Positions 2,582-63,644 of a DNA stretch of 64,000 bases are shown here, one piece after another (position 1 is the first letter of the stretch; the number at the start of each line of letters is the position of its first letter). The DNA comes from an uncultured Gammaproteobacteria bacterium. GTDB taxonomy: Bacteria; Patescibacteriota; Patescibacteriia; Magasanikbacterales; GWA2-37-8. Below the pieces are notes generated by a model. The model was not told the origin of the DNA, did not search any database, and was given only the letters and a program-made list of their open reading frames with translations. Location of the stretch: positions 13,741 to 77,740 of the forward strand of contig CAZHNI010000004.1 of NCBI GenBank assembly GCA_964533715.1, written 5' to 3'. A program made the translations under genes and the position numbers.

Positions 2582-2714
2582 TGTCATCCCGAGCGAGCGA
2601 AGCGACGAGCCTGCCTCCTGCATGCGCAGGCATGGCGCAGGCAGGGGATCTCTGTCCGTTTCGTCAACTAAACAATTGAGACAGAGATTCCTCCTTCGTC
2701 GTCGGAATGACAGT
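2582..2714. repeat. palindromic mini-element, long form (copy 1)
   Basis: It has TGTCATCCCGAGCG...CGTCGGAATGACAGT terminal inverted arms. The inner hairpin is GGATCTCTGTCCGTT...GAGACAGAGATTCC. The GC-rich core is the palindrome GCCTGCCTCCTGCATGCGCAGGCATGGCGCAGGCAGG. Confidence 0.85.
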
Positions 2715-2768: not shown

Positions 2769-3434
2769 ATGCCTAACTCAAAGTTTTATCAGTTTATATC
2801 CGCGTTGTTTGTCACCTGTTTAATTATTTCAAATATTATCGCCGTTAAAATTGGTGCGTTTGGCAGTTATTTTTTGCCAGTCGCCGTCATTTTATTCCCC
2901 ATTACATACATCATTGGTGATGTTTTAACAGAAGTCTATGGTTATGCCGCCGCCCGCCACGCCATTTGGATGGGGTTTTTCTGTAACTTGGTGGCAGTTG
3001 TTGCTATTTATATTGGTATCAAAATCACACCCGCGCCGTTTTTTCAAAATCAAGCGGCGTTTGAGCAAATCCTTGGTTTCACTCCACGCCTCCTTGTTGC
3101 CTCGTTTATTGCGTATTTGGTAGGGCAGTTTGTAAATTCTATGGTGCTGGCCAAAATGAAAATAGCCACGAATGGCAAACATTTGTGGATGCGCACGATT
3201 GGTTCCACCATTGTCGGCGAAGGTTTGGATTCCGCTCTTTTTATCTCAATCGCGTTTTGGGGCATAATGCCGCCATCGGTTATTGGTACCCTGATTGTAA
3301 CACAATGGATTTTCAAGACACTGTTTGAAACGGTTGCAACGCCGATAACGTACCTGGTAGTGGGCTATTTGAAGAAAAACGAGAAAATCGATGTGTATGA
3401 TAAGGACACTAATTTTAGTCCAGTCAAAATGTAA
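2769..3434 (+). CDS. queuosine precursor transporter, YhhQ/COG1738 family
   Basis: Polytopic membrane protein with the YhhQ-like motif PITYIIGDVLTEVYGY. It is adjacent to queF. Confidence 0.65.
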   Translation: MPNSKFYQFISALFVTCLIISNIIAVKIGAFGSYFLPVAVILFPITYIIGDVLTEVYGYAAARHAIWMGFFCNLVAVVAIYIGIKITPAPFFQNQAAFEQILGFTPRLLVASFIAYLVGQFVNSMVLAKMKIATNGKHLWMRTIGSTIVGEGLDSALFISIAFWGIMPPSVIGTLIVTQWIFKTLFETVATPITYLVVGYLKKNEKIDVYDKDTNFSPVKM

Positions 3435-3440
3435 TTTAGG

Positions 3441-3834
3441 CTGTCATTTCGAACGAATGTGAGAAATCTCTGTCCGTTATGTCACGCAATCACAATTACT
3501 ATGTTTATTTAATGGCAAGTGTGGCTTATGTGATATATATTGGAGTAACAAATGATCTAGTTCGGAGAGTCGAGGAACATAAGAACAAAATATCAGAAGG
3601 TTTTACTAAAAAATATAATTGTAATAAATTAGTTTACTACGAACATTTCGGCCATATTAATGACGCAATCTATCGAGAAACTGAAATAAAAAAATGGAGA
3701 CGAGAAAAGAAAGTTAAATTAATTGAGAGCGAGAATCCACGATGGAACGACCTGTATGACACCATTACGGACAGAGATTCCCCTAAGAGGGATCGCGAGA
3801 CCCCGTCGGCGCGAGCCTCGCTCGGAATGACAGT
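3441..3834. mobile_element. palindromic mini-element copy whose hairpin loop carries a GIY-YIG nuclease gene
   Basis: The left arm CTGTCATTTCGAACGAATGTGAGAAATCTCTGTCCGTT (3441-3478) is identical over 28 nt to the left arm of the copy at 63492. The right arm ACGGACAGAGATTCC...GCCTCGCTCGGAATGACAGT (3767-3834) matches the same copy's right arm. The GIY-YIG ORF sits exactly between the inner inverted repeats GAGAAATCTCTGTCCGTT and AACGGACAGAGATTCC. Confidence 0.75.
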
Positions 3835-3841
3835 AAAATAA
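3479..3841 (+). CDS. GIY-YIG nuclease family protein (UPF0213/YhbQ-like)
   Basis: The pattern YYVYLMAS...YIGVTNDLVRRVEEHK...KLVYYE matches GIY-YIG/YhbQ-type small nucleases. The C-terminal ~25 aa are encoded by the repeat right arm. Confidence 0.8.
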   Translation: MSRNHNYYVYLMASVAYVIYIGVTNDLVRRVEEHKNKISEGFTKKYNCNKLVYYEHFGHINDAIYRETEIKKWRREKKVKLIESENPRWNDLYDTITDRDSPKRDRETPSARASLGMTVK

Positions 3842-3842
3842 T

Positions 3843-4241
3843 ATGCCTACAAGTAAGAATGATTTAGCAAAACTCACCAAACTTGGTAAGGAAGCAAAAG
3901 CCTCTCGCACGCTGGAAGTGTTCCCAAATCATGCCCCTAAAGGTACCATTGAAGTTACTCTCCACTGCACCGAGTTCACCTGTCGTTGTCCCCTAACGAA
4001 CCAGCCAGATTACGCCGAAATACAAATTACCTACGTGCCGGATAAATTTGTGGTGGAATCAAAATCGTTCAAGTTGTATTTAGAAACGTACCGCGATGAG
4101 GGTGTATTCCACGAACATTTAGCGGTGGATATTGGCAAAGATTTTGTGAAGTTTGTAAAACCAAAAAGTTGTGAAGTGTTAGTTATGTTTAATACACGCG
4201 GAGGCATTGCGATTGACGCGAAGTGGAGTTATAAAAAATAG
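3843..4241 (+). CDS. queF: NADPH-dependent 7-cyano-7-deazaguanine reductase QueF (type I)
   Basis: EFTCRCPLTNQPDYAEI matches the QueF active-site motif (E-F-T-x-x-C-P-x-T-x-Q-P-D), and ~130 aa is typical of the YkvM type. Confidence 0.85.
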   Translation: MPTSKNDLAKLTKLGKEAKASRTLEVFPNHAPKGTIEVTLHCTEFTCRCPLTNQPDYAEIQITYVPDKFVVESKSFKLYLETYRDEGVFHEHLAVDIGKDFVKFVKPKSCEVLVMFNTRGGIAIDAKWSYKK

Positions 4242-13259: not shown

Positions 13260-14591
13260 TTAATAGTTTAGTTTCCATAGTCCATGTGTATCTTGCAAAT
13301 AAAGCACTCGATTTGTTGTGTCGGCAGTTACATTTGTTATTCCAGATAGAGCAAATTCATCTTGTATAAGATAATTAGGAAACAGAATTGATAACCGACC
13401 ATCTCGGACGAGCGCCAGAGTATCATATTCATCAAGCGGAGTAACTGAGGATATTGACCCACCAAATCGATTAACTAATTTTGGGTCAGCTCCTTCCTGG
13501 TAATTCCACAACTCGGATGGTGTAGAAATAAACCAAGTATTAGTGAAAGCGGAACGTACTATAGAGCCATGCGGAAACATGAATTGAGTGCCTGGAGTAA
13601 GAAGAGCTGTATCATTAGTGATTTTATTTTTTAGAAAAATACTTTGTCCGGTGGCATAGATAAAACGCCACTGTGCAGAATTGTCCTGGAGAGTTATTTG
13701 TGGCCAACGATTTTTAAAACCAAGGGCATCTTTAGTTATATAAAGAGTAGTAGTTGTTTCCGGATCGAGAGTCCAAAGTTCACTCCCCTCCATAAACCAA
13801 CTTAATAGAGCCTGGGAATTAATAGTTATTTTTTGTTCAGTGCGTGGTAAAAAGCTGTACAGACCATTTGCGGTGCTATAGTAAAGTTCCGGTTCGGCGC
13901 TATTACGCCACTGCCAGTTGGTGATTTCAGTAGTATCTGGCGTAATAATTTTAAATTGTCGGTCAAAATGTTCAGCATCAAAAATTATTAAGTATGTGTA
14001 CGGTTCATTTGTTCCGCTCACCGCCACGTAATTAAATTTTGTTGACCAATGTAGTAATATATCTTGTGTTCCAGGTAAACGTGCCAGCTCACTAATTTTT
14101 TTGGTTGGCACGTTATAAAGCCAAAGGATAGTTGTGGTGGTATTTTTTTGAGGAAATATTACAAATTTACCGTCGAATGATATTTCAGGCTTCTCGAAAG
14201 TTCCAGACGCTATGAGTTCGGGTTTGGTATCGCGAATCAGGTGAAGATTATTTATATATAAAGTTTTACCGTTTTCAATGATAATTTCTTTTTCCCAACT
14301 ATGGTACCCAGGAGCGGTGAGACGCAGCTGATATTTTTGTGGCGAAATATTTGAGAGACGAATGGGAATAGTTTTGTCAAGAAGTAAGTTATTAAGGTAC
14401 GCGTTGGTTTGTTTGGGAACCACGTCTATACTGATGCTGCCAGTTTCTCGCCAAAAACCGTTGCGCGCATCATAACGAAATCCGGCAGTATAGAAAAGTA
14501 CCAAAGGCAGCGAAACACAAAAAATAATTAAAAAAATTATAAAAGTAAGCAGGCGCCAACGGTGTGTAAATATTGATCCTGGATATTCCAT
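13260..14591 (-). CDS. hypothetical membrane-anchored protein
   Basis: N-terminal TM helix with a large extracytoplasmic domain and no recognised motif. Confidence 0.4.
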   Translation of the reverse strand: MEYPGSIFTHRWRLLTFIIFLIIFCVSLPLVLFYTAGFRYDARNGFWRETGSISIDVVPKQTNAYLNNLLLDKTIPIRLSNISPQKYQLRLTAPGYHSWEKEIIIENGKTLYINNLHLIRDTKPELIASGTFEKPEISFDGKFVIFPQKNTTTTILWLYNVPTKKISELARLPGTQDILLHWSTKFNYVAVSGTNEPYTYLIIFDAEHFDRQFKIITPDTTEITNWQWRNSAEPELYYSTANGLYSFLPRTEQKITINSQALLSWFMEGSELWTLDPETTTTLYITKDALGFKNRWPQITLQDNSAQWRFIYATGQSIFLKNKITNDTALLTPGTQFMFPHGSIVRSAFTNTWFISTPSELWNYQEGADPKLVNRFGGSISSVTPLDEYDTLALVRDGRLSILFPNYLIQDEFALSGITNVTADTTNRVLYLQDTHGLWKLNY

Positions 14592-25695: not shown

Positions 25696-25793
25696 TGTCA
25701 TTCTGAGGGAGTGAAACGACCGAAGAATCTCTGTCCGTTGATGATTGAGACAGAGATCCTTCCCCTCGACTTTACTCGGGGTCAGGATGACAT
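25696..25793. repeat. palindromic mini-element, medium form (copy 3)
   Basis: TTGTCATTCTGAGGGAGTGAAACGACCGAAGAATCTCTGTCCGTT...GAGACAGAGATCC...GGTCAGGATGACATT. It is about 85 percent identical to the copy inside rsmH. The right arm supplies the ATG (25787) of the downstream gene. Confidence 0.85.
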
Positions 25794-28839: not shown

Positions 28840-28953
28840 TGTCATTCCGACCGAAGTGGAGGAATCCCTTGATCCGTGAGTCACAACGGTCAAGCGATTT
28901 CTCGACTCGGCTTTCGCCTCGCCTGTCTGCGCAGGCAGGCTCGAAATGACAGT
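28840..28953. repeat. palindromic mini-element (copy 4)
   Basis: TTGTCATTCCGACCGAAGTGGAGGAATCCC...CTCGACTCGGCTTTCGCCTCGCCTGTCTGCGCAGGCAGGCTCGAAATGACAGT. It has the same terminal arms and a related GC-rich palindromic core. Confidence 0.8.
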
Positions 28954-37390: not shown

Positions 37391-38827
37391 TTGTTTGCCA
37401 TATTGGTATACTTAAGTAATTCAACTATGAAAGTATCTTTTTTTGGTGCCGCCGGCGAAGTTACCGGTTCTTGTAGTCTAATAGAAACAGGGCAAAATAG
37501 CATTCTCATCGATTGCGGAATGTTTCAGGGCAGTGATTTTAACGATGCCAAAAATCATAAACCGCTGCCGTTTGATCCTAAAACGCTCACACATGTTTTT
37601 ATTACTCACGCCCACCTCGATCATACCGGGCGTTTGCCGCTTTTGGTTAAACAAGGTTATAGCGGGTATTTTTATGCTACCGCCCCAACACTCGAGTTGG
37701 CCGAATTGGTTATGAAAGATGCGCACAATATAATGGTCTACGATAATAAAAAATTTGGTCGGACCATTTTATATAGTGAAGAAGATATTGCAGGGGTGAT
37801 GGGAAGAACTAAGGCTGTAAAATACGGAGAGGAGTTGAAATTTGGTGGTATTGTTGGTGAAAGGGATTCTTCGGCTACGCTCCGCTCCGCTCAGAATGAC
37901 AATCTGGTGGTGAGATTTCACGACGTCGGCCACATTTTTGGTTCTGCTTTTATCGAAATTAACGCCGAGGGTAAGAAAATTGTATTCTCCGGAGATGTTG
38001 GTAATGTTCATGTACCTATTTTACGCGATACCGAAGCTTTGCCGAGCAATCTTGACCTTTTAGTTTGTGAGTCAACCTACGGCGACCGCCTGCACGAAGT
38101 TCGCGCCACACGAGAAGAAATGATTGAAGAGGCGATACTCGATGGTGTTGGTAGGGGAGGAGTTCTCATGATTCCTTCGTTTGCTTTGGAGCGCACGCAA
38201 GAATTAATGTATGAACTTAATAAACTCATTGACCACAAACACAAGCTCGGTGGCATTCCCATTTTTTTAGATAGCCCACTCGCTATTGACGCAATTAAAG
38301 TGTATCGCAAATACCCCGAATATTACGACGAAAAAGCCAATGAATATTTTAAAGATGGTGATGATATTTTTGATTTTAAGAACTTAATTACTACATATTC
38401 GCGCGAAGAATCCATGAAAATAAATCATACCCTTGGGCCTAAAGTTATTATTGCCGGTGCCGGCATGATGAACGGGGGTAGAATTTTGCACCACGCTCTT
38501 CGTTATTTATCGGATGCGCGTAACACAATTTTGTTTATTGGTTACCAATCTCCCGGGACGCTGGGCAGACAAATTCAAGACGGTCATTCAACCGTAGAGG
38601 TATTGGGCGAGCGCGTGCAAGTAAAATGCAAAATAAATAATATTAGTGCGCTGTCAGCTCATGGTGATCAAAATAAGCTCGTCAGTTGGATTGGGGCGGC
38701 TAAACCAAAACGTGTTTATTTTAACCACGGGGAAGATAGTGCCGCTCAGGCAATTAGTAGTAAATTATCTAAAGAATTTAATGTGGAAGCAGTTATAGCT
38801 AAACCAAAATTAACTATTCAAGTATAA
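37391..38827 (+). CDS. MBL-fold beta-CASP ribonuclease (RNA-metabolising metallo-beta-lactamase)
   Basis: HxHxDH motif (THAHLDHTGRLP) plus beta-CASP motifs. Confidence 0.8.
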   Translation: MFAILVYLSNSTMKVSFFGAAGEVTGSCSLIETGQNSILIDCGMFQGSDFNDAKNHKPLPFDPKTLTHVFITHAHLDHTGRLPLLVKQGYSGYFYATAPTLELAELVMKDAHNIMVYDNKKFGRTILYSEEDIAGVMGRTKAVKYGEELKFGGIVGERDSSATLRSAQNDNLVVRFHDVGHIFGSAFIEINAEGKKIVFSGDVGNVHVPILRDTEALPSNLDLLVCESTYGDRLHEVRATREEMIEEAILDGVGRGGVLMIPSFALERTQELMYELNKLIDHKHKLGGIPIFLDSPLAIDAIKVYRKYPEYYDEKANEYFKDGDDIFDFKNLITTYSREESMKINHTLGPKVIIAGAGMMNGGRILHHALRYLSDARNTILFIGYQSPGTLGRQIQDGHSTVEVLGERVQVKCKINNISALSAHGDQNKLVSWIGAAKPKRVYFNHGEDSAAQAISSKLSKEFNVEAVIAKPKLTIQV

Positions 38828-39942: not shown

Positions 39943-40956
39943 ATGCGCCACGTTCCAGTTCTACTTAATGAAGTAATTGCTGCCTTAGAGCCAAAATCTG
40001 GGATGAATTTTGTTGATTGTACTCTAGGCGATGGCGGTCATGCTGAAGCTATTTTGGAAAAAATAGCCCCGAGTGGAAAGTTGCTTGGAATCGACGCCGA
40101 TCCAGAATCACTCCTTCGCGCTAAACAATATTTGTACCGTTTTGGAGAGCGTGCTATGTATGTCCGCGATAATTTCGTACACATGAAAAAAATTGTTGCT
40201 GAAAACAATTTTGGTCATGTTGACGGAATACTTATGGATTTAGGTTGGTCAAGTCCGCAGTTTGCGGAACGGGGGAGAGGGTTTAGTTTCGAGAAGGATG
40301 AAAAATTAGACATGCGGTACGACCCCAACTGTCATTCTGAGGGAGGAACGACCGAAGAATCTCTGGCTCATTTGGAGAACGGGCAGAGATCCTTAATTCC
40401 GCTCAGGATGACATGTGAAACAGCTGCGGAGATAGTGAACGGTTATTCTGAAACAGAACTAAATCACATTTTTAAAACGTACGGTGAAGAAAAATTGTAC
40501 AAAGAAATTGCCGAAGCGATTGTTGCTACAAGGAACAAGGAACAAGGAACAAATAACAAAATCGAAACGACAAAACAATTAGTGGATATTATTTTGGAAG
40601 TTTACCGTAACAAATTAAATAGCACTAAAGAAATTCCCTGGATTGGTGGAATTCACCCGGCCACCAAGGTGTTTCAAGCTCTCCGCATTGAGGTTAACCA
40701 GGAATTAGCTGTTTTAAAAGAAGTTTTACCGCAATTAGTTGAAATTCTTTCTCCCGGTGGCCGTTTAGCAGTTATAACTTTCCACTCGTTGGAAGACAGA
40801 ACAGTAAAACAGTTTTTTCAAACAATAGCACATAAACAAATAAAATTAATTAATAAAAAACCGCTCACCGCAAGCGCAAAAGAATTAGCGGACAATTCAC
40901 GATCGAGAAGCGCAAAATTGCGAGTAGTGGAAAAAATAAATGAAAATAAAAATTAA
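39943..40956 (+). CDS. rsmH: 16S rRNA (cytosine1402-N4)-methyltransferase RsmH, with an in-frame ~29-aa palindromic-element insertion
   Basis: VPVLLNEV, DCTLGDGGHA, the FSF...LDMRYDP motif and TFHSLEDR are present. Residues ~129-158 (NCHSEGGTTEESLAHLENGQRSLIPLRMTC) are encoded by a repeat copy. Confidence 0.9.
   Translation: MRHVPVLLNEVIAALEPKSGMNFVDCTLGDGGHAEAILEKIAPSGKLLGIDADPESLLRAKQYLYRFGERAMYVRDNFVHMKKIVAENNFGHVDGILMDLGWSSPQFAERGRGFSFEKDEKLDMRYDPNCHSEGGTTEESLAHLENGQRSLIPLRMTCETAAEIVNGYSETELNHIFKTYGEEKLYKEIAEAIVATRNKEQGTNNKIETTKQLVDIILEVYRNKLNSTKEIPWIGGIHPATKVFQALRIEVNQELAVLKEVLPQLVEILSPGGRLAVITFHSLEDRTVKQFFQTIAHKQIKLINKKPLTASAKELADNSRSRSAKLRVVEKINENKN
40329..40414. repeat. palindromic mini-element (copy 5) inserted in-frame within rsmH
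   Basis: ACTGTCATTCTGAGGGAGGAACGACCGAAGAATCTCTGGC...GGGCAGAGATCC...GCTCAGGATGACATGT, about 85 percent identical to the copy at 25696. There is no stop codon in the rsmH frame. Confidence 0.85.
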
Positions 40957-44131: not shown

Positions 44132-44296
44132 TATAATTAAGTAAAATTTGTCACATTGTAATCACCGATCACAAAAACAATTATTTATTTCAGCTACTTA
44201 TATCCCAACTAGTGTTTAAATTAGCTAAAATATAATAAAATTTTTTTATAAATGGGGTTATAGCCATTGGGTGGGGTATAACCGTCGTTGTGGATT

Positions 44297-44319
44297 CCCG
44301 TTTTCACGGGAATGACAGT
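44297..44319. repeat. terminal fragment of the palindromic element (CCCGTTTTCACGGGAATGACAGT)
   Basis: Matches the right-arm consensus (GGAATGACAGT) with a short hairpin and has no left arm. Confidence 0.5.
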
Positions 44320-50983: not shown

Positions 50984-52435
50984 TTAAAATTGTGGAATTG
51001 GTGGGGGAGAAGATTCAACTGGTTTAGCAAAAGCGGATTTTGGTTTTAAAGCTCCCGAGCTCTGGTCGTTATAGTGTGTTTCTAAATTCCTAAACGAAGC
51101 TAGAGTTTCGTTAAAAGCAACTTTAACGAGTCCGGTAGGACCATTGCGATGCTTGGCGATATGAATTTCTGCCAGATTTCTTTCATCCGGCGGTATGTCT
51201 TCCATTCGGTAGTTACGATCGGCTGATTTGCGATAAATAAAAATGACGACGTCAGCATCCTGTTCAATGGAACCAGATTCGCGCAGGTGTGAAAGTTTTG
51301 GAATAGCTGGTTTACTTTGTTCCACCACGCGTGAAAGCTGAGAGAGCGCCAGAACCGGAATGTTAAGCTCACGCGCAATACCTTTAAGGCCACGAGTAAT
51401 TTCGGCAATTTCTTGGGTACGGTTATCGTTAGAGGAATGCGATTCCATAAGCTGTAAATAGTCTACCACAATAAGACCAAGTCCATGCTCTGCCTGGAGA
51501 CGTCGCGCTTTTGTTCTAATTTGCATTATATTTACATTGGGGGCGTCATCAATAAAAATAGGCGATTCGGATAAAACACCAATTGCGTGTCCAATGCGCG
51601 GGAAATCATCATCTTCTGGTCGGTCAGAAAGCCTGCCGGTGCGCATTTTCCACAAATCAACGCCAGCTTCGGAGCAAAGCATTCTATCAACTAGTTGTTC
51701 TTTGCTCATTTCAAGAGAGAACAGCCCAACCGGCACTTTTTGTTTGGTGGCAACATTGCGTACAATATCGAGGGCAAATGAAGTTTTTCCAACACTCGGG
51801 CGGGCGGCCAAAATAACCAAATCAGATTTTTGAAGGCCGGCTAATAAATTATCGAGCTGTTTAAAACCGGTTGGTACGCCGCGCAGTTGCCCTTTATTTT
51901 TGTGCAATTCGTCAATGCGGTCAAAAGCATCCGCAAGCACCCCGCGAATGGGGGTAAAAGCCTGTTTAAAATAAATATTGGAAACTCCAAATAAATGACG
52001 TTGGGCCTCGTCAAGCAATTCTTCAATGTTATCTTGTTCTTCGAGGTAGGCTAAGCGGGAAATTTCGTATGACGAAGTTAACAGCCGTCGCCGAGTAGCT
52101 TTGCGATGAATAATATGGCCATAATTTACCACGTTTGAGGCTGTTGGCACGGCGTTGGTGAGGGCAGCGAGGTATGCTCTGCCACCAATCATCTCTAAAT
52201 GCCCTTTTTCTTCCAACCGAGTTGAGAGAGTCAAAAGATCAATGGGGTCATTTTTGCCGTAAAGTTCTAAAATACATTCAAAAATTTTAACATGAGCATT
52301 TTTATAAAAATCTTCCGGCGTTACGATATCAGCCACCTTAAGAATTGCTTCTTTATCAATTAAAAGCGAGCCTAAAAAAGACATTTCGGCTTCCAAACTT
52401 TGCGGCGGAATTTTTTCAATTTCATCTGTGGGCAT
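50984..52435 (-). CDS. dnaB: replicative DNA helicase DnaB
   Basis: Has the N-terminal domain (SLEAEMSFLGSLLID), Walker A (ARPSVGKTSFALDI) and the RecA-like C-terminus. Confidence 0.9.
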   Translation of the reverse strand: MPTDEIEKIPPQSLEAEMSFLGSLLIDKEAILKVADIVTPEDFYKNAHVKIFECILELYGKNDPIDLLTLSTRLEEKGHLEMIGGRAYLAALTNAVPTASNVVNYGHIIHRKATRRRLLTSSYEISRLAYLEEQDNIEELLDEAQRHLFGVSNIYFKQAFTPIRGVLADAFDRIDELHKNKGQLRGVPTGFKQLDNLLAGLQKSDLVILAARPSVGKTSFALDIVRNVATKQKVPVGLFSLEMSKEQLVDRMLCSEAGVDLWKMRTGRLSDRPEDDDFPRIGHAIGVLSESPIFIDDAPNVNIMQIRTKARRLQAEHGLGLIVVDYLQLMESHSSNDNRTQEIAEITRGLKGIARELNIPVLALSQLSRVVEQSKPAIPKLSHLRESGSIEQDADVVIFIYRKSADRNYRMEDIPPDERNLAEIHIAKHRNGPTGLVKVAFNETLASFRNLETHYNDQSSGALKPKSAFAKPVESSPPPIPQF

Positions 52436-57693: not shown

Positions 57694-57731
57694 CTGTCAT
57701 TTCACTGCGCTACGCTCCAGTCGGAATGACA
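57694..57731. repeat. palindromic mini-element, minimal form (copy 6; ACTGTCATTTCACTGCGCTACGCTCCAGTCGGAATGACAAT)
   Basis: Only the terminal arms plus a short core. The right arm contains an in-frame ATG for the downstream gene. Confidence 0.7.
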
Positions 57732-63491: not shown

Positions 63492-63634
63492 TGTCATTTC
63501 GAACGAATGTGAGAAATCCCTGTCTGCGCCATGCCTGCGCATGCAGGAGGCAGGTCTGTTTCACTCAACGGACACTCATCACTATTGTGACAGAGATTCC
63601 TCGTCGGCTGCCAAGCCTCGCTCGGAATGACAGT
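63492..63634. repeat. palindromic mini-element, long form (copy 7, inverted relative to copy 1)
   Basis: TTGTCATTTCGAACGAATGTGAGAAATCCCTGTC...GACAGAGATTCC...GCCTCGCTCGGAATGACAGT. Its core CTGCGCCATGCCTGCGCATGCAGGAGGCAGG is the exact reverse complement of the copy-1 core. Confidence 0.85.
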
Positions 63635-63644
63635 ATGTGAGACT

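Follow-up and report, generated by a model that had tools for sequence, protein, structure and literature searches.

A GIY-YIG nuclease gene between inverted hairpin arms in a Patescibacteria genome: a probable member of the Ssn/SRM system

A small gene for a GIY-YIG nuclease lies between two inverted hairpin arms in a 64,000-nt stretch of DNA (the window; contig CAZHNI010000004.1 of assembly GCA_964533715.1, forward-strand positions 13,741 to 77,740) from an uncultured bacterium that GTDB places in the Patescibacteriota. By analogy with characterised enzymes, we are fairly confident that this locus is a member, in the candidate phyla radiation (CPR), of the Ssn/SRM system, which acts on hairpins in single-stranded DNA (ssDNA). 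The arrangement of gene plus repeats is already known (Ssn, 2025); what is added here is a new lineage and a new variant of the repeat. The new elements are the Patescibacteria host, the long-loop arms, an orthologous site that is empty, copies lying in frame within genes, and the variety of hairpin classes found in one loop of rsmH.

The Ssn system was described by Chenal et al. (Nat Commun 2025; PMC11893778). According to that paper, SsnA of Neisseria meningitidis is a 94-aa single-domain GIY-YIG protein (CDD cd10448) with the catalytic residues Y6 (GIY), Y17 (YIG) and E64, which binds the NTS hairpin CGTCATTCCCGCGMAVGCGGGAATCYRG, an oriented superset of dRS3, as ssDNA only and cleaves in the variable flank, a few nt 5' of the repeat. 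Cutting depends most on the GTC in front of the palindrome, and binding on the C behind it. The hairpins are summarised by the SRM pattern HGTCWYN(0-2)YYVSBRHN(0-5)WNVSBRGN(0-2)RNCYNB; SRM motifs stand on both sides of the gene in 42% of homologues, four homologues cut their own motifs, and 2% of N. meningitidis NTS are inside genes. SsnA lowers the transformation of N. meningitidis by NTS-bearing DNA about 5-fold. The authors likened NTS-ssnA-NTS to an insertion sequence (IS) and to the REP/RAYT systems and proposed domestication; Rickettsia is among their SRM-rich genera, and Patescibacteria are not mentioned. The statement in the first-pass annotation of this DNA that small GIY-YIG ORFs (open reading frames) are unexplained is therefore out of date, since the family and its flanking hairpins are characterised in PMC11893778. 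The 2006 paper on GIY-YIG phylogenomics makes no mention of repeats around standalone Slx1-like proteins.

The locus in the window is Ssn-like in that its protein is a single-domain GIY-YIG enzyme of about 95 aa (a core of 97 aa), in that inverted hairpins, each with its GTC head and C tail, stand on either side of the gene, and in that many further copies of the motif are present in its genome, one of them of the canonical NTS/dRS3 type (44290-44317). It differs in its host, a member of the Patescibacteria, in its arms, which have 5-bp stems and loops of 12-42 nt, in the extra inner inverted repeat of the doublets (GAATCTCTGTC / GACAGAGATTC), in an ORF that reads through the right arm, and in the share of repeats inside genes, which is 2/9 elements (3/13 arms) in the window against the 2% of N. 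meningitidis.

The gene-bearing unit

The unit and its parts are given below, one feature a line.

3442..3832, no strand: whole unit, TGTCAT...ATGACA, 391 bp, made of two inverted hairpin arms and the nuclease gene
3443..3468, + strand: left SRM-like arm, with GTC head, 5-bp stem ATTTC/GAAAT, 12-nt loop and C tail
3467..3478, + strand: left half of the inner inverted repeat, TCTCTGTCCGTT, abutting the ATG of the ORF (from sequence and ssDNA fold)
3479..3841, + strand: ssn-like ORF of 120 aa, with the GIY-YIG core at 3479-3769 (97 aa; Pfam PF01541, 3.7e-13)
3767..3781, + strand: right half of the inner inverted repeat, ACGGACAGAGATTCC (from sequence and ssDNA fold)
3776..3831, - strand: right SRM-like arm, with GTC head, stem ATTCC/GGAAT, 42-nt loop and C tail

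The unit forms the core of a 408-nt stretch that separates the stop codon of Vut_1 (3432-3434) from the ATG of queF (3843). Its left arm (3443-3468) runs forward on the + strand and its right arm (3776-3831) forward on the - strand, and both arm heads point outward. In the reading proposed here, the arms are cognate motifs of the nuclease, each built from a GTC head, a short AT(Y)YC stem, a loop, the complement of the stem and a C tail. The left arm is identical to 63493-63518 in a gene-free copy of the repeat: TGTCATTTCGAACGAATGTGAGAAATC occurs exactly at 3442-3468 and at 63492-63518, over 27 nt, or 32/33 including the next bases, where chance is expected to give no such exact match. The end of the right arm, AGCCTCGCTCGGAATGACAGTA, is likewise exact at 3814-3835 and 63614-63635. 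This bears out the earlier claim that the unit and the gene-free copies carry the same arms, the match of the right arm to the copy at 63492 included; the identity of the left arm also stands, over 27 nt and not the 28 nt first given.

Inside the arms, ACGGACAGAGATT precedes the right arm and is the complement of the left inner segment, and the inner repeat GACAGAGATTYC, counted together with its complement, is found 7 times where 0.29 would be expected. When the whole unit is folded as ssDNA, two stems form, the outer one from CTGTCATTTCGAA / TCGGAATGACAG and the inner one from AAATCTCTGTCCG / CGGACAGAGATT, and the ORF is placed inside a loop of about 290 nt; the minimum free energy and centroid structures agree (z = -2.9). 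The fold thus agrees with the first-pass proposal that the gene sits in the loop of a hairpin.

The limits of the ORF had been given as the two halves of the inner repeat, and this is half right. The ORF does start directly after ...GAAATCTCTGTCCGTT; its stop codon (3839-3841), however, lies 7 nt past ATGACA, and the ORF runs through the entire right arm. Residues 98-120 (3770-3838) are the translated right arm (..DRDSPKRDRETPSARASLGMTVK), which means that the last 23 residues of the protein are encoded by the arm. The PF01541 match spans residues 6-78, and homologues, of which there are more than 8000, are typically 95-99 aa long. The AlphaFold model (pLDDT 90.7) is a confident GIY-YIG fold with no additional domain, and its fold matches are UPF0213 (1zg2), Slx1 and UvrC-N. 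In an alignment of 20 sequences Y20, R30, H34 and E67 are invariant and Y10 is nearly so; the conserved residues Y10, Y20, R30, H34 and E67 fit the GIY...YIG...R...E catalytic set, as judged from the alignment. No Ssn structure was found in the PDB, searched by sequence and by fold, and the protein has no match in NCBIfam.

The label YhbQ-like, used in the first reading, is apt only in a loose sense. An identity with UPF0213/YhbQ was considered and rejected: E. coli YhbQ is 21% identical, 1zg2 is matched at E = 3e-4, and yhbQ is without arms. The gene itself is chromosomal and lies inside an operon, and no second paralogue of it is present in the 64-kb window. A promoter scan from the upstream stop codon to the ORF found no promoter-like site, which is compatible with co-transcription with the neighbours.

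Repeat copies in the window and around homologous genes

The bracketing of the gene by arms recurs far beyond the window. We compared 80 homologue loci (L-numbers are labels of these and other compared loci), whose proteins are 49-66% identical to that of the window, with one genome per species and many phyla represented. In the flank test, the 150 nt upstream of each gene were locally aligned with the reverse complement of the 200 nt downstream, with 60 random windows of the same locus as controls. Enough flank was available at 74 loci, from Acidobacteriota, Bacteroidota, Chloroflexota, Proteobacteria, Patescibacteria, Verrucomicrobiota, Firmicutes and Actinobacteria. The median score was 38 against 16 for the controls, and 45/74 loci scored above all 60 of their own controls. 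Clear inverted arms are present at 47/74 loci. Bracketing of the gene by arms is not chance, and it is a rule for the protein family across phyla.

The arms have common ends. In the aligned termini, T-GTC-A-T is found in 33-36/36 left ends and 30-34/34 right ends, followed inward by positions rich in Y-C-C, and conservation drops abruptly outside the T. The inner parts of the arms are lineage-specific, for example ATTCCTGCGCAGGCAGGAAT in Flavobacteria and ...CCCGGCTTGACCGGGCGATCCAGTA in alphaproteobacteria. All four closest homologues with recoverable context (L086-L089) have arms; one stands at the same Vut_1-queF site and three in unrelated neighbourhoods. Within 20 kb, half of the loci contain their own arm at least once more, against none in shuffled sequences; a second nuclease gene within 20 kb is seen at few loci. 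At L044, L049, L061 and L069 (49-55% identical to the window protein), the flanking hairpins match the published SRM pattern.

Two side observations concern the surroundings of these genes. At L024, L006, L080 and L066 the inverted repeat around the nuclease gene runs 10-15 nt past TGTCA, into DNA that ought to be flank; the element may be longer there, its target may be palindromic, or the extension may be a footprint left by the insertion mechanism. At L088 (3300-3520) and in the flanks of L064, L057 and L013, tandem hairpin heads or partial modules lie beside the nuclease genes, an example being CTGTCATCCCGAGCGAGGCCGTAGCCAGA repeated four times.

Within the 64 kb of the window there are eight further copies of the repeat, namely five gene-free doublets, one single arm, one solo hairpin and one minimal copy.

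2582..2712, no strand: gene-free doublet, 11 nt past the Hsp20 stop codon; fold z = -4.95
25696..25792, no strand: gene-free doublet with a 13-nt spacer, 7 nt past a stop codon
28840..28951, no strand: gene-free doublet; fold z = -4.5
37865..37901, - strand: single arm, in frame within the beta-CASP RNase gene
40330..40413, no strand: doublet of 84 nt (28 codons), in frame within rsmH (CHSEGG...IPLRMT)
44290..44317, - strand: solo short-loop canonical hairpin, TGTCATTCCCGTGAAAACGGGAATCCAC
57695..57731, no strand: minimal copy of 37 nt, termini only, 9 nt past a stop codon
63492..63632, no strand: gene-free doublet, starting 1 nt past a stop codon

The relaxed structural scan looked for GTC, a stem of 5 bp or more whose first base is A and whose second is T or C, a loop no longer than 50 nt, the stem's complement and a final C; it gave 14 matches in the window against 3.05 from shuffles. 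Thirteen of them fall within recognised copies, and the remaining one, at 52247, looks spurious. The terminal inverted repeats are common to gene-bearing and gene-free copies, and it is the doublet at 63492 whose arms most resemble those around the gene. Gene-free copies are predicted to fold into one long hairpin each (z = -2.5 to -5), and it is the inner inverted repeat that makes each doublet one long hairpin. The solo hairpin at 44290-44317 is the sole site in the window that matches the published SRM pattern, and it matches the dRS3 core ATTCCC-N8-GGGAAT too. Rfam gives no family in the window at the gathering threshold, and around the element only noise at E <= 10.

All six intergenic doublets or minimal copies (2582, 3442, 25696, 28840, 57695 and 63492) lie between co-directional genes, each beginning 0-29 nt past the stop codon of the upstream one. 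This placement is like that of repetitive extragenic palindromes (REP) and bacterial interspersed mosaic elements (BIME), the solo hairpin at 44290 being the exception. As a side observation, a 37-nt palindrome, CCTGCCTCCTGCATGCGCAGGCATGGCGCAGGCAGGG, is nested in the doublet at 2582 (2610-2646) and, inverted, in that at 63492 (63518-63554), and a related CCTGTCTGCGCAGGCAGG occurs in a third doublet, that at 28840 (partial, 28923-28940). It resembles a small mobile palindrome of a second kind, or a module swapped between copies.

It had been suggested that the short copies derive from a nuclease-carrying parent. This could not be upheld, as the gene-free spacers hold no remnant similar to the ORF (p = 0.19-0.56), and the gene-free copies are thus not demonstrable as derivatives by deletion or excision. 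Miniature transposable elements with inverted repeats (MITEs) derived by deletion from several near-identical parents were also considered and rejected, because the spacers are unlike the ORF and only one gene is present in 64 kb.

Some of the evidence weighs against assigning the locus to the Ssn/SRM system. The arms that flank the gene in the window miss the published SRM pattern, their loops being too long, and matches to that pattern lie near the gene in only 8/73 homologue loci. Moreover, when the two arms of the gene-bearing unit are folded singly, they do no better than shuffled sequences (z = 0.2 and -0.5), and in this lineage the pairing of arm with arm is predicted more convincingly than a hairpin of each arm on its own. 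Membership at the level of the motif thus rests on the shared architecture and not on the published definition. Considering that the pattern is found near 8/73 genes and arms at 47/74 loci, the hairpins of the family are more diverse than the published pattern, which misses a large share of them.

Insertion history of the repeats

The genes on either side of the unit are the following.

2769..3434, + strand: upstream neighbour, Vut_1 / queuosine precursor transporter
3843..4241, + strand: downstream neighbour, QueF (preQ1 synthase)

Vut_1 and queF form a tight pair that is widespread, with 1-47 nt between the genes. In L085 the orthologous site is empty, Vut_1 and queF being joined as TAA-t-ATG. 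In L086 a full arm-gene-arm unit stands between the two genes, with a nuclease 80% identical to that of the window, and in L132, where the contig begins within the arm, queF is abutted by a right arm at least. On this comparison of sequences, the unit has inserted into a Vut_1-queF pair that was tight ancestrally, and the first-pass claim that it splits the queuosine transporter from queF holds.

The order of events at this site can be approached through the first 103 codons of queF. There L132 and L085 resemble each other most (96% aa, 87% nt); the window follows at 92-93% aa, with L086 farthest away at 85-86% aa. The topology over these 103 codons is therefore (((L132 occupied, L085 empty), window occupied), L086 occupied). 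The empty site is nested among occupied ones, and this means, as far as so short a piece of queF can tell, either that a unit was lost precisely or that this site received insertions more than once. Between the window and L086 the nuclease is 80% identical in aa and its neighbours 82-86%; the similar divergence of nuclease and neighbours fits a long, vertical residence. The right flanks of the occupied sites, AGTAAAATAAT, AGTGT and AGTAAT, resemble AGTGTAAT of the empty site, a weak resemblance seen at one site. No clear case of a target-site duplication was found there, and none is evident at the other copies.

Two side observations were made on the same gene pair. In a more distant relative (L083 3880-4000 and L084 478-598), a different spacer of 121 nt occupies the Vut_1-queF junction; it is rich in the inverted motifs ATCCGAAT / ATTCGGAT, is without TGTCAT heads, and may be another palindromic element using the site. 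Two metagenomic queF genes (L121 1424-1540, and L122) carry an out-of-frame insert of about 115 nt after residue 102, which contains stop codons and is unrelated to the TGTCAT elements.

In rsmH, the doublet at 40330-40413 adds 28 codons. Residues ~127-158 of RsmH, which hold this insert, find nothing to match them in the T. thermophilus and T. maritima enzymes (1wg8 and 1m6y), and six orthologues lack the insert. In other Patescibacteria this loop of rsmH holds in-frame inserts that also start with Cys-His (TGTCAT) but come from different hairpin classes, one of them fully canonical (8-bp stem, 4-nt loop). The sites compared are the following.

Window 40330-40413; L129 10001-10999; L130 9410-10387; L131 116-1129: rsmH loop after DMRYDxx, with at least four sequence classes of doublet

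It could be that this surface loop is a hotspot of insertion, or that an old insert has been overwritten by the repeat class of each genome. L129 has a doublet of its own rsmH-insert class directly upstream of rsmH. As a side observation, a doublet of the genome's own class lies inside the called range of lepA in L130 (3891-3971), and it is a candidate in-frame coding insertion.

The single arm at 37865-37901 lies inside an 18-residue insert, VGERDSSATLRSAQNDNL, of a TTHA0252-like beta-CASP RNase, to which TTHA0252 has no counterpart. The length of this RNase is 478 aa in the window, 450 aa in L130 and 532 aa in L129, a side observation; judging from the gene sequences, its inserts may vary between genomes. 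Compared at the level of sequence, the patterns at the Vut_1-queF site and in rsmH point to the gain, loss or overwriting of doublets in the course of evolution, whatever the catalyst may be.

Possible mechanism and rival explanations

We propose the following mechanism by analogy with the four enzymes of PMC11893778. The nuclease would bind its hairpin only in ssDNA, for instance at replication forks, in repair or on incoming transforming DNA, and would then nick a few nt 5' of the GTC head. The nicks are predicted at about 3433-3440 (top strand) and about 3835-3842 (bottom strand); since the heads point outward, the cuts would fall just outside the unit, on opposite strands, and the same geometry is predicted for the gene-free doublets. 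From the characterised relatives, we infer that the window protein cleaves ssDNA only and at these positions, and that the nuclease may have a role in the spread of the repeats. The nicks may serve either a host function, the processing of ssDNA as in Neisseria, or a selfish one, the liberation and spread of the element.

On the selfish side, it is possible, though doubtful, that the arm-gene-arm unit is an active autonomous element whose nuclease excises and inserts both itself and the MITE-like doublets through ssDNA hairpins, much as RAYT does with REPINs or TnpA with IS200/IS605, an idea that the authors of PMC11893778 also raised. The architecture is indeed IS-like, with outward heads and predicted cuts that bracket the unit, and such an element would account for the presence/absence polymorphism at the orthologous Vut_1-queF site, for the in-frame copies in rsmH and the beta-CASP RNase gene, for an rsmH loop that is empty in six orthologues and holds at least four hairpin classes in others, and for close homologues in unrelated gene neighbourhoods. 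Against this, there is one copy of the gene in 64 kb and a second copy within 20 kb at few loci, with no sign of recent bursts of the gene-bearing unit; the gene-free spacers are without ORF remnants, a target-site duplication is faint at best, and the divergence of the nuclease between the window and L086 is like that of its neighbours and fits long vertical residence. The chemistry is also a difficulty. To our knowledge, GIY-YIG enzymes are hydrolytic nucleases for which no strand transfer or ligation is known, and for this reason an autonomous transposon is a hypothesis and not a finding. We would only tentatively entertain the wider claim, which leans towards the improbable, that the units and doublets are a still-active, ssDNA-mediated mobile family driven by the GIY-YIG nuclease, a new or "peel-and-paste-like" class of transposition, together with its consequences, namely precise excision in L085, repeated entry into or overwriting of the rsmH loop, and copies that track the specificity of their own nuclease.

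A domesticated host system is quite conceivable, though we hold this reading, too, with less than even confidence. Here the nuclease would act in trans on ssDNA hairpins and restrict or shape the recombination of incoming DNA, the arms of the gene would be a relic or a regulatory feature, and the repeats would have spread by recombination or slippage and been kept as RNA or DNA structures at 3' ends. The effect of SsnA on N. meningitidis transformation (PMC11893778) is in its favour, as are a gene that is apparently single-copy and possibly long resident at its site, the six intergenic copies just past stop codons, like REP/BIME, and the lack of a promoter-like site just upstream of the ORF. 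By itself, however, this reading leaves unexplained why arms bracket the gene in most lineages, and it does not account for in-frame doublets in coding loops or for the varied classes in rsmH. Homing, in which the nuclease would cut empty doublets and repair from the gene-bearing copy would drive the ORF into their loops, had been suggested in the first-pass annotation, in the form of a homing-type GIY-YIG gene that targets the hairpin. The ORF does sit exactly at the spacer position of the doublets, and GIY-YIG is a classical homing-endonuclease fold; but the other five doublets of the window are empty and one gene was found, the 97-aa core is without a DNA-binding extension, and the characterised members of the family do not cut double-stranded DNA (PMC11893778). 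A bare 97-aa domain with relatives that cut only ssDNA makes a classical homing endonuclease unlikely, and we consider homing very improbable. Assignment to the GIY-YIG homing endonuclease class was rejected in its own right, there being no DNA-binding domain and no intron, intein or phage context. That an ordinary YhbQ-like repair gene merely came to lie beside REP-like terminator hairpins would suit the frequent position of hairpin copies at gene ends; the bracketing recurs across phyla with conserved TGTCAT termini, though, and E. coli yhbQ, 21% identical, has no arms, so that a chance juxtaposition is hardly credible.

Other repeat systems offer partial parallels to the Ssn-like locus. The REPIN concept holds that repeats occur as doublets that form hairpins. 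Such doublets are a feature in common with the window. REP/BIME and RAYT systems (PMC2817692, PMC3333891) are also similar in having a single, apparently domesticated nuclease gene between inverted copies of the palindrome that is recognised, and in repeats that sit at 3' gene ends and have a short conserved head. They differ in the enzyme, which is GIY-YIG in the window and HUH Y1 in REP/RAYT, and in the head, TGTCAT against GTAG or CGTC. An identity with the REP/RAYT enzyme, an HUH Y1 transposase, was thus rejected, the protein being GIY-YIG, and a GIY-YIG enzyme would not form the covalent 5'-phosphotyrosine intermediate that can rejoin DNA. The Neisseria dRS3/NIME elements share the ATTCCC-N8-GGGAAT type of core, exact at 44290-44317, and a mosaic structure with nested insertions; most copies in the window differ from them in ATTYC stems and long loops, and the host belongs to another phylum. 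I-TevI-type homing endonucleases, YhbQ / UPF0213 and Slx1 have the catalytic fold in common with the window protein. The Rickettsia palindromic elements (RPE) that Ogata et al. are said to have described in 2000 reportedly lie in frame inside conserved protein-coding genes. By that description, they resemble the window copies as in-frame palindromic repeats tolerated as extra surface loops. Since Rickettsia is one of the SRM-rich genera (PMC11893778), a link to RPE is worth testing.

The Ssn paper provided the enzymology and one function, in Neisseria; what the system does elsewhere, and whether NTS-ssn-NTS is mobile, remained as questions. The locus in the window extends the Ssn/SRM system to streamlined CPR genomes and offers, together with the comparisons, testable cases of gain or loss: an orthologous site that is empty, essential genes with in-frame copies, and a hotspot in a coding loop where the hairpin class varies. 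If the nuclease does not drive these gains and losses, the locus is one more Ssn/SRM pair. If it does, this would be a new transposition chemistry, and it might explain in-frame palindromic elements such as those of Rickettsia.

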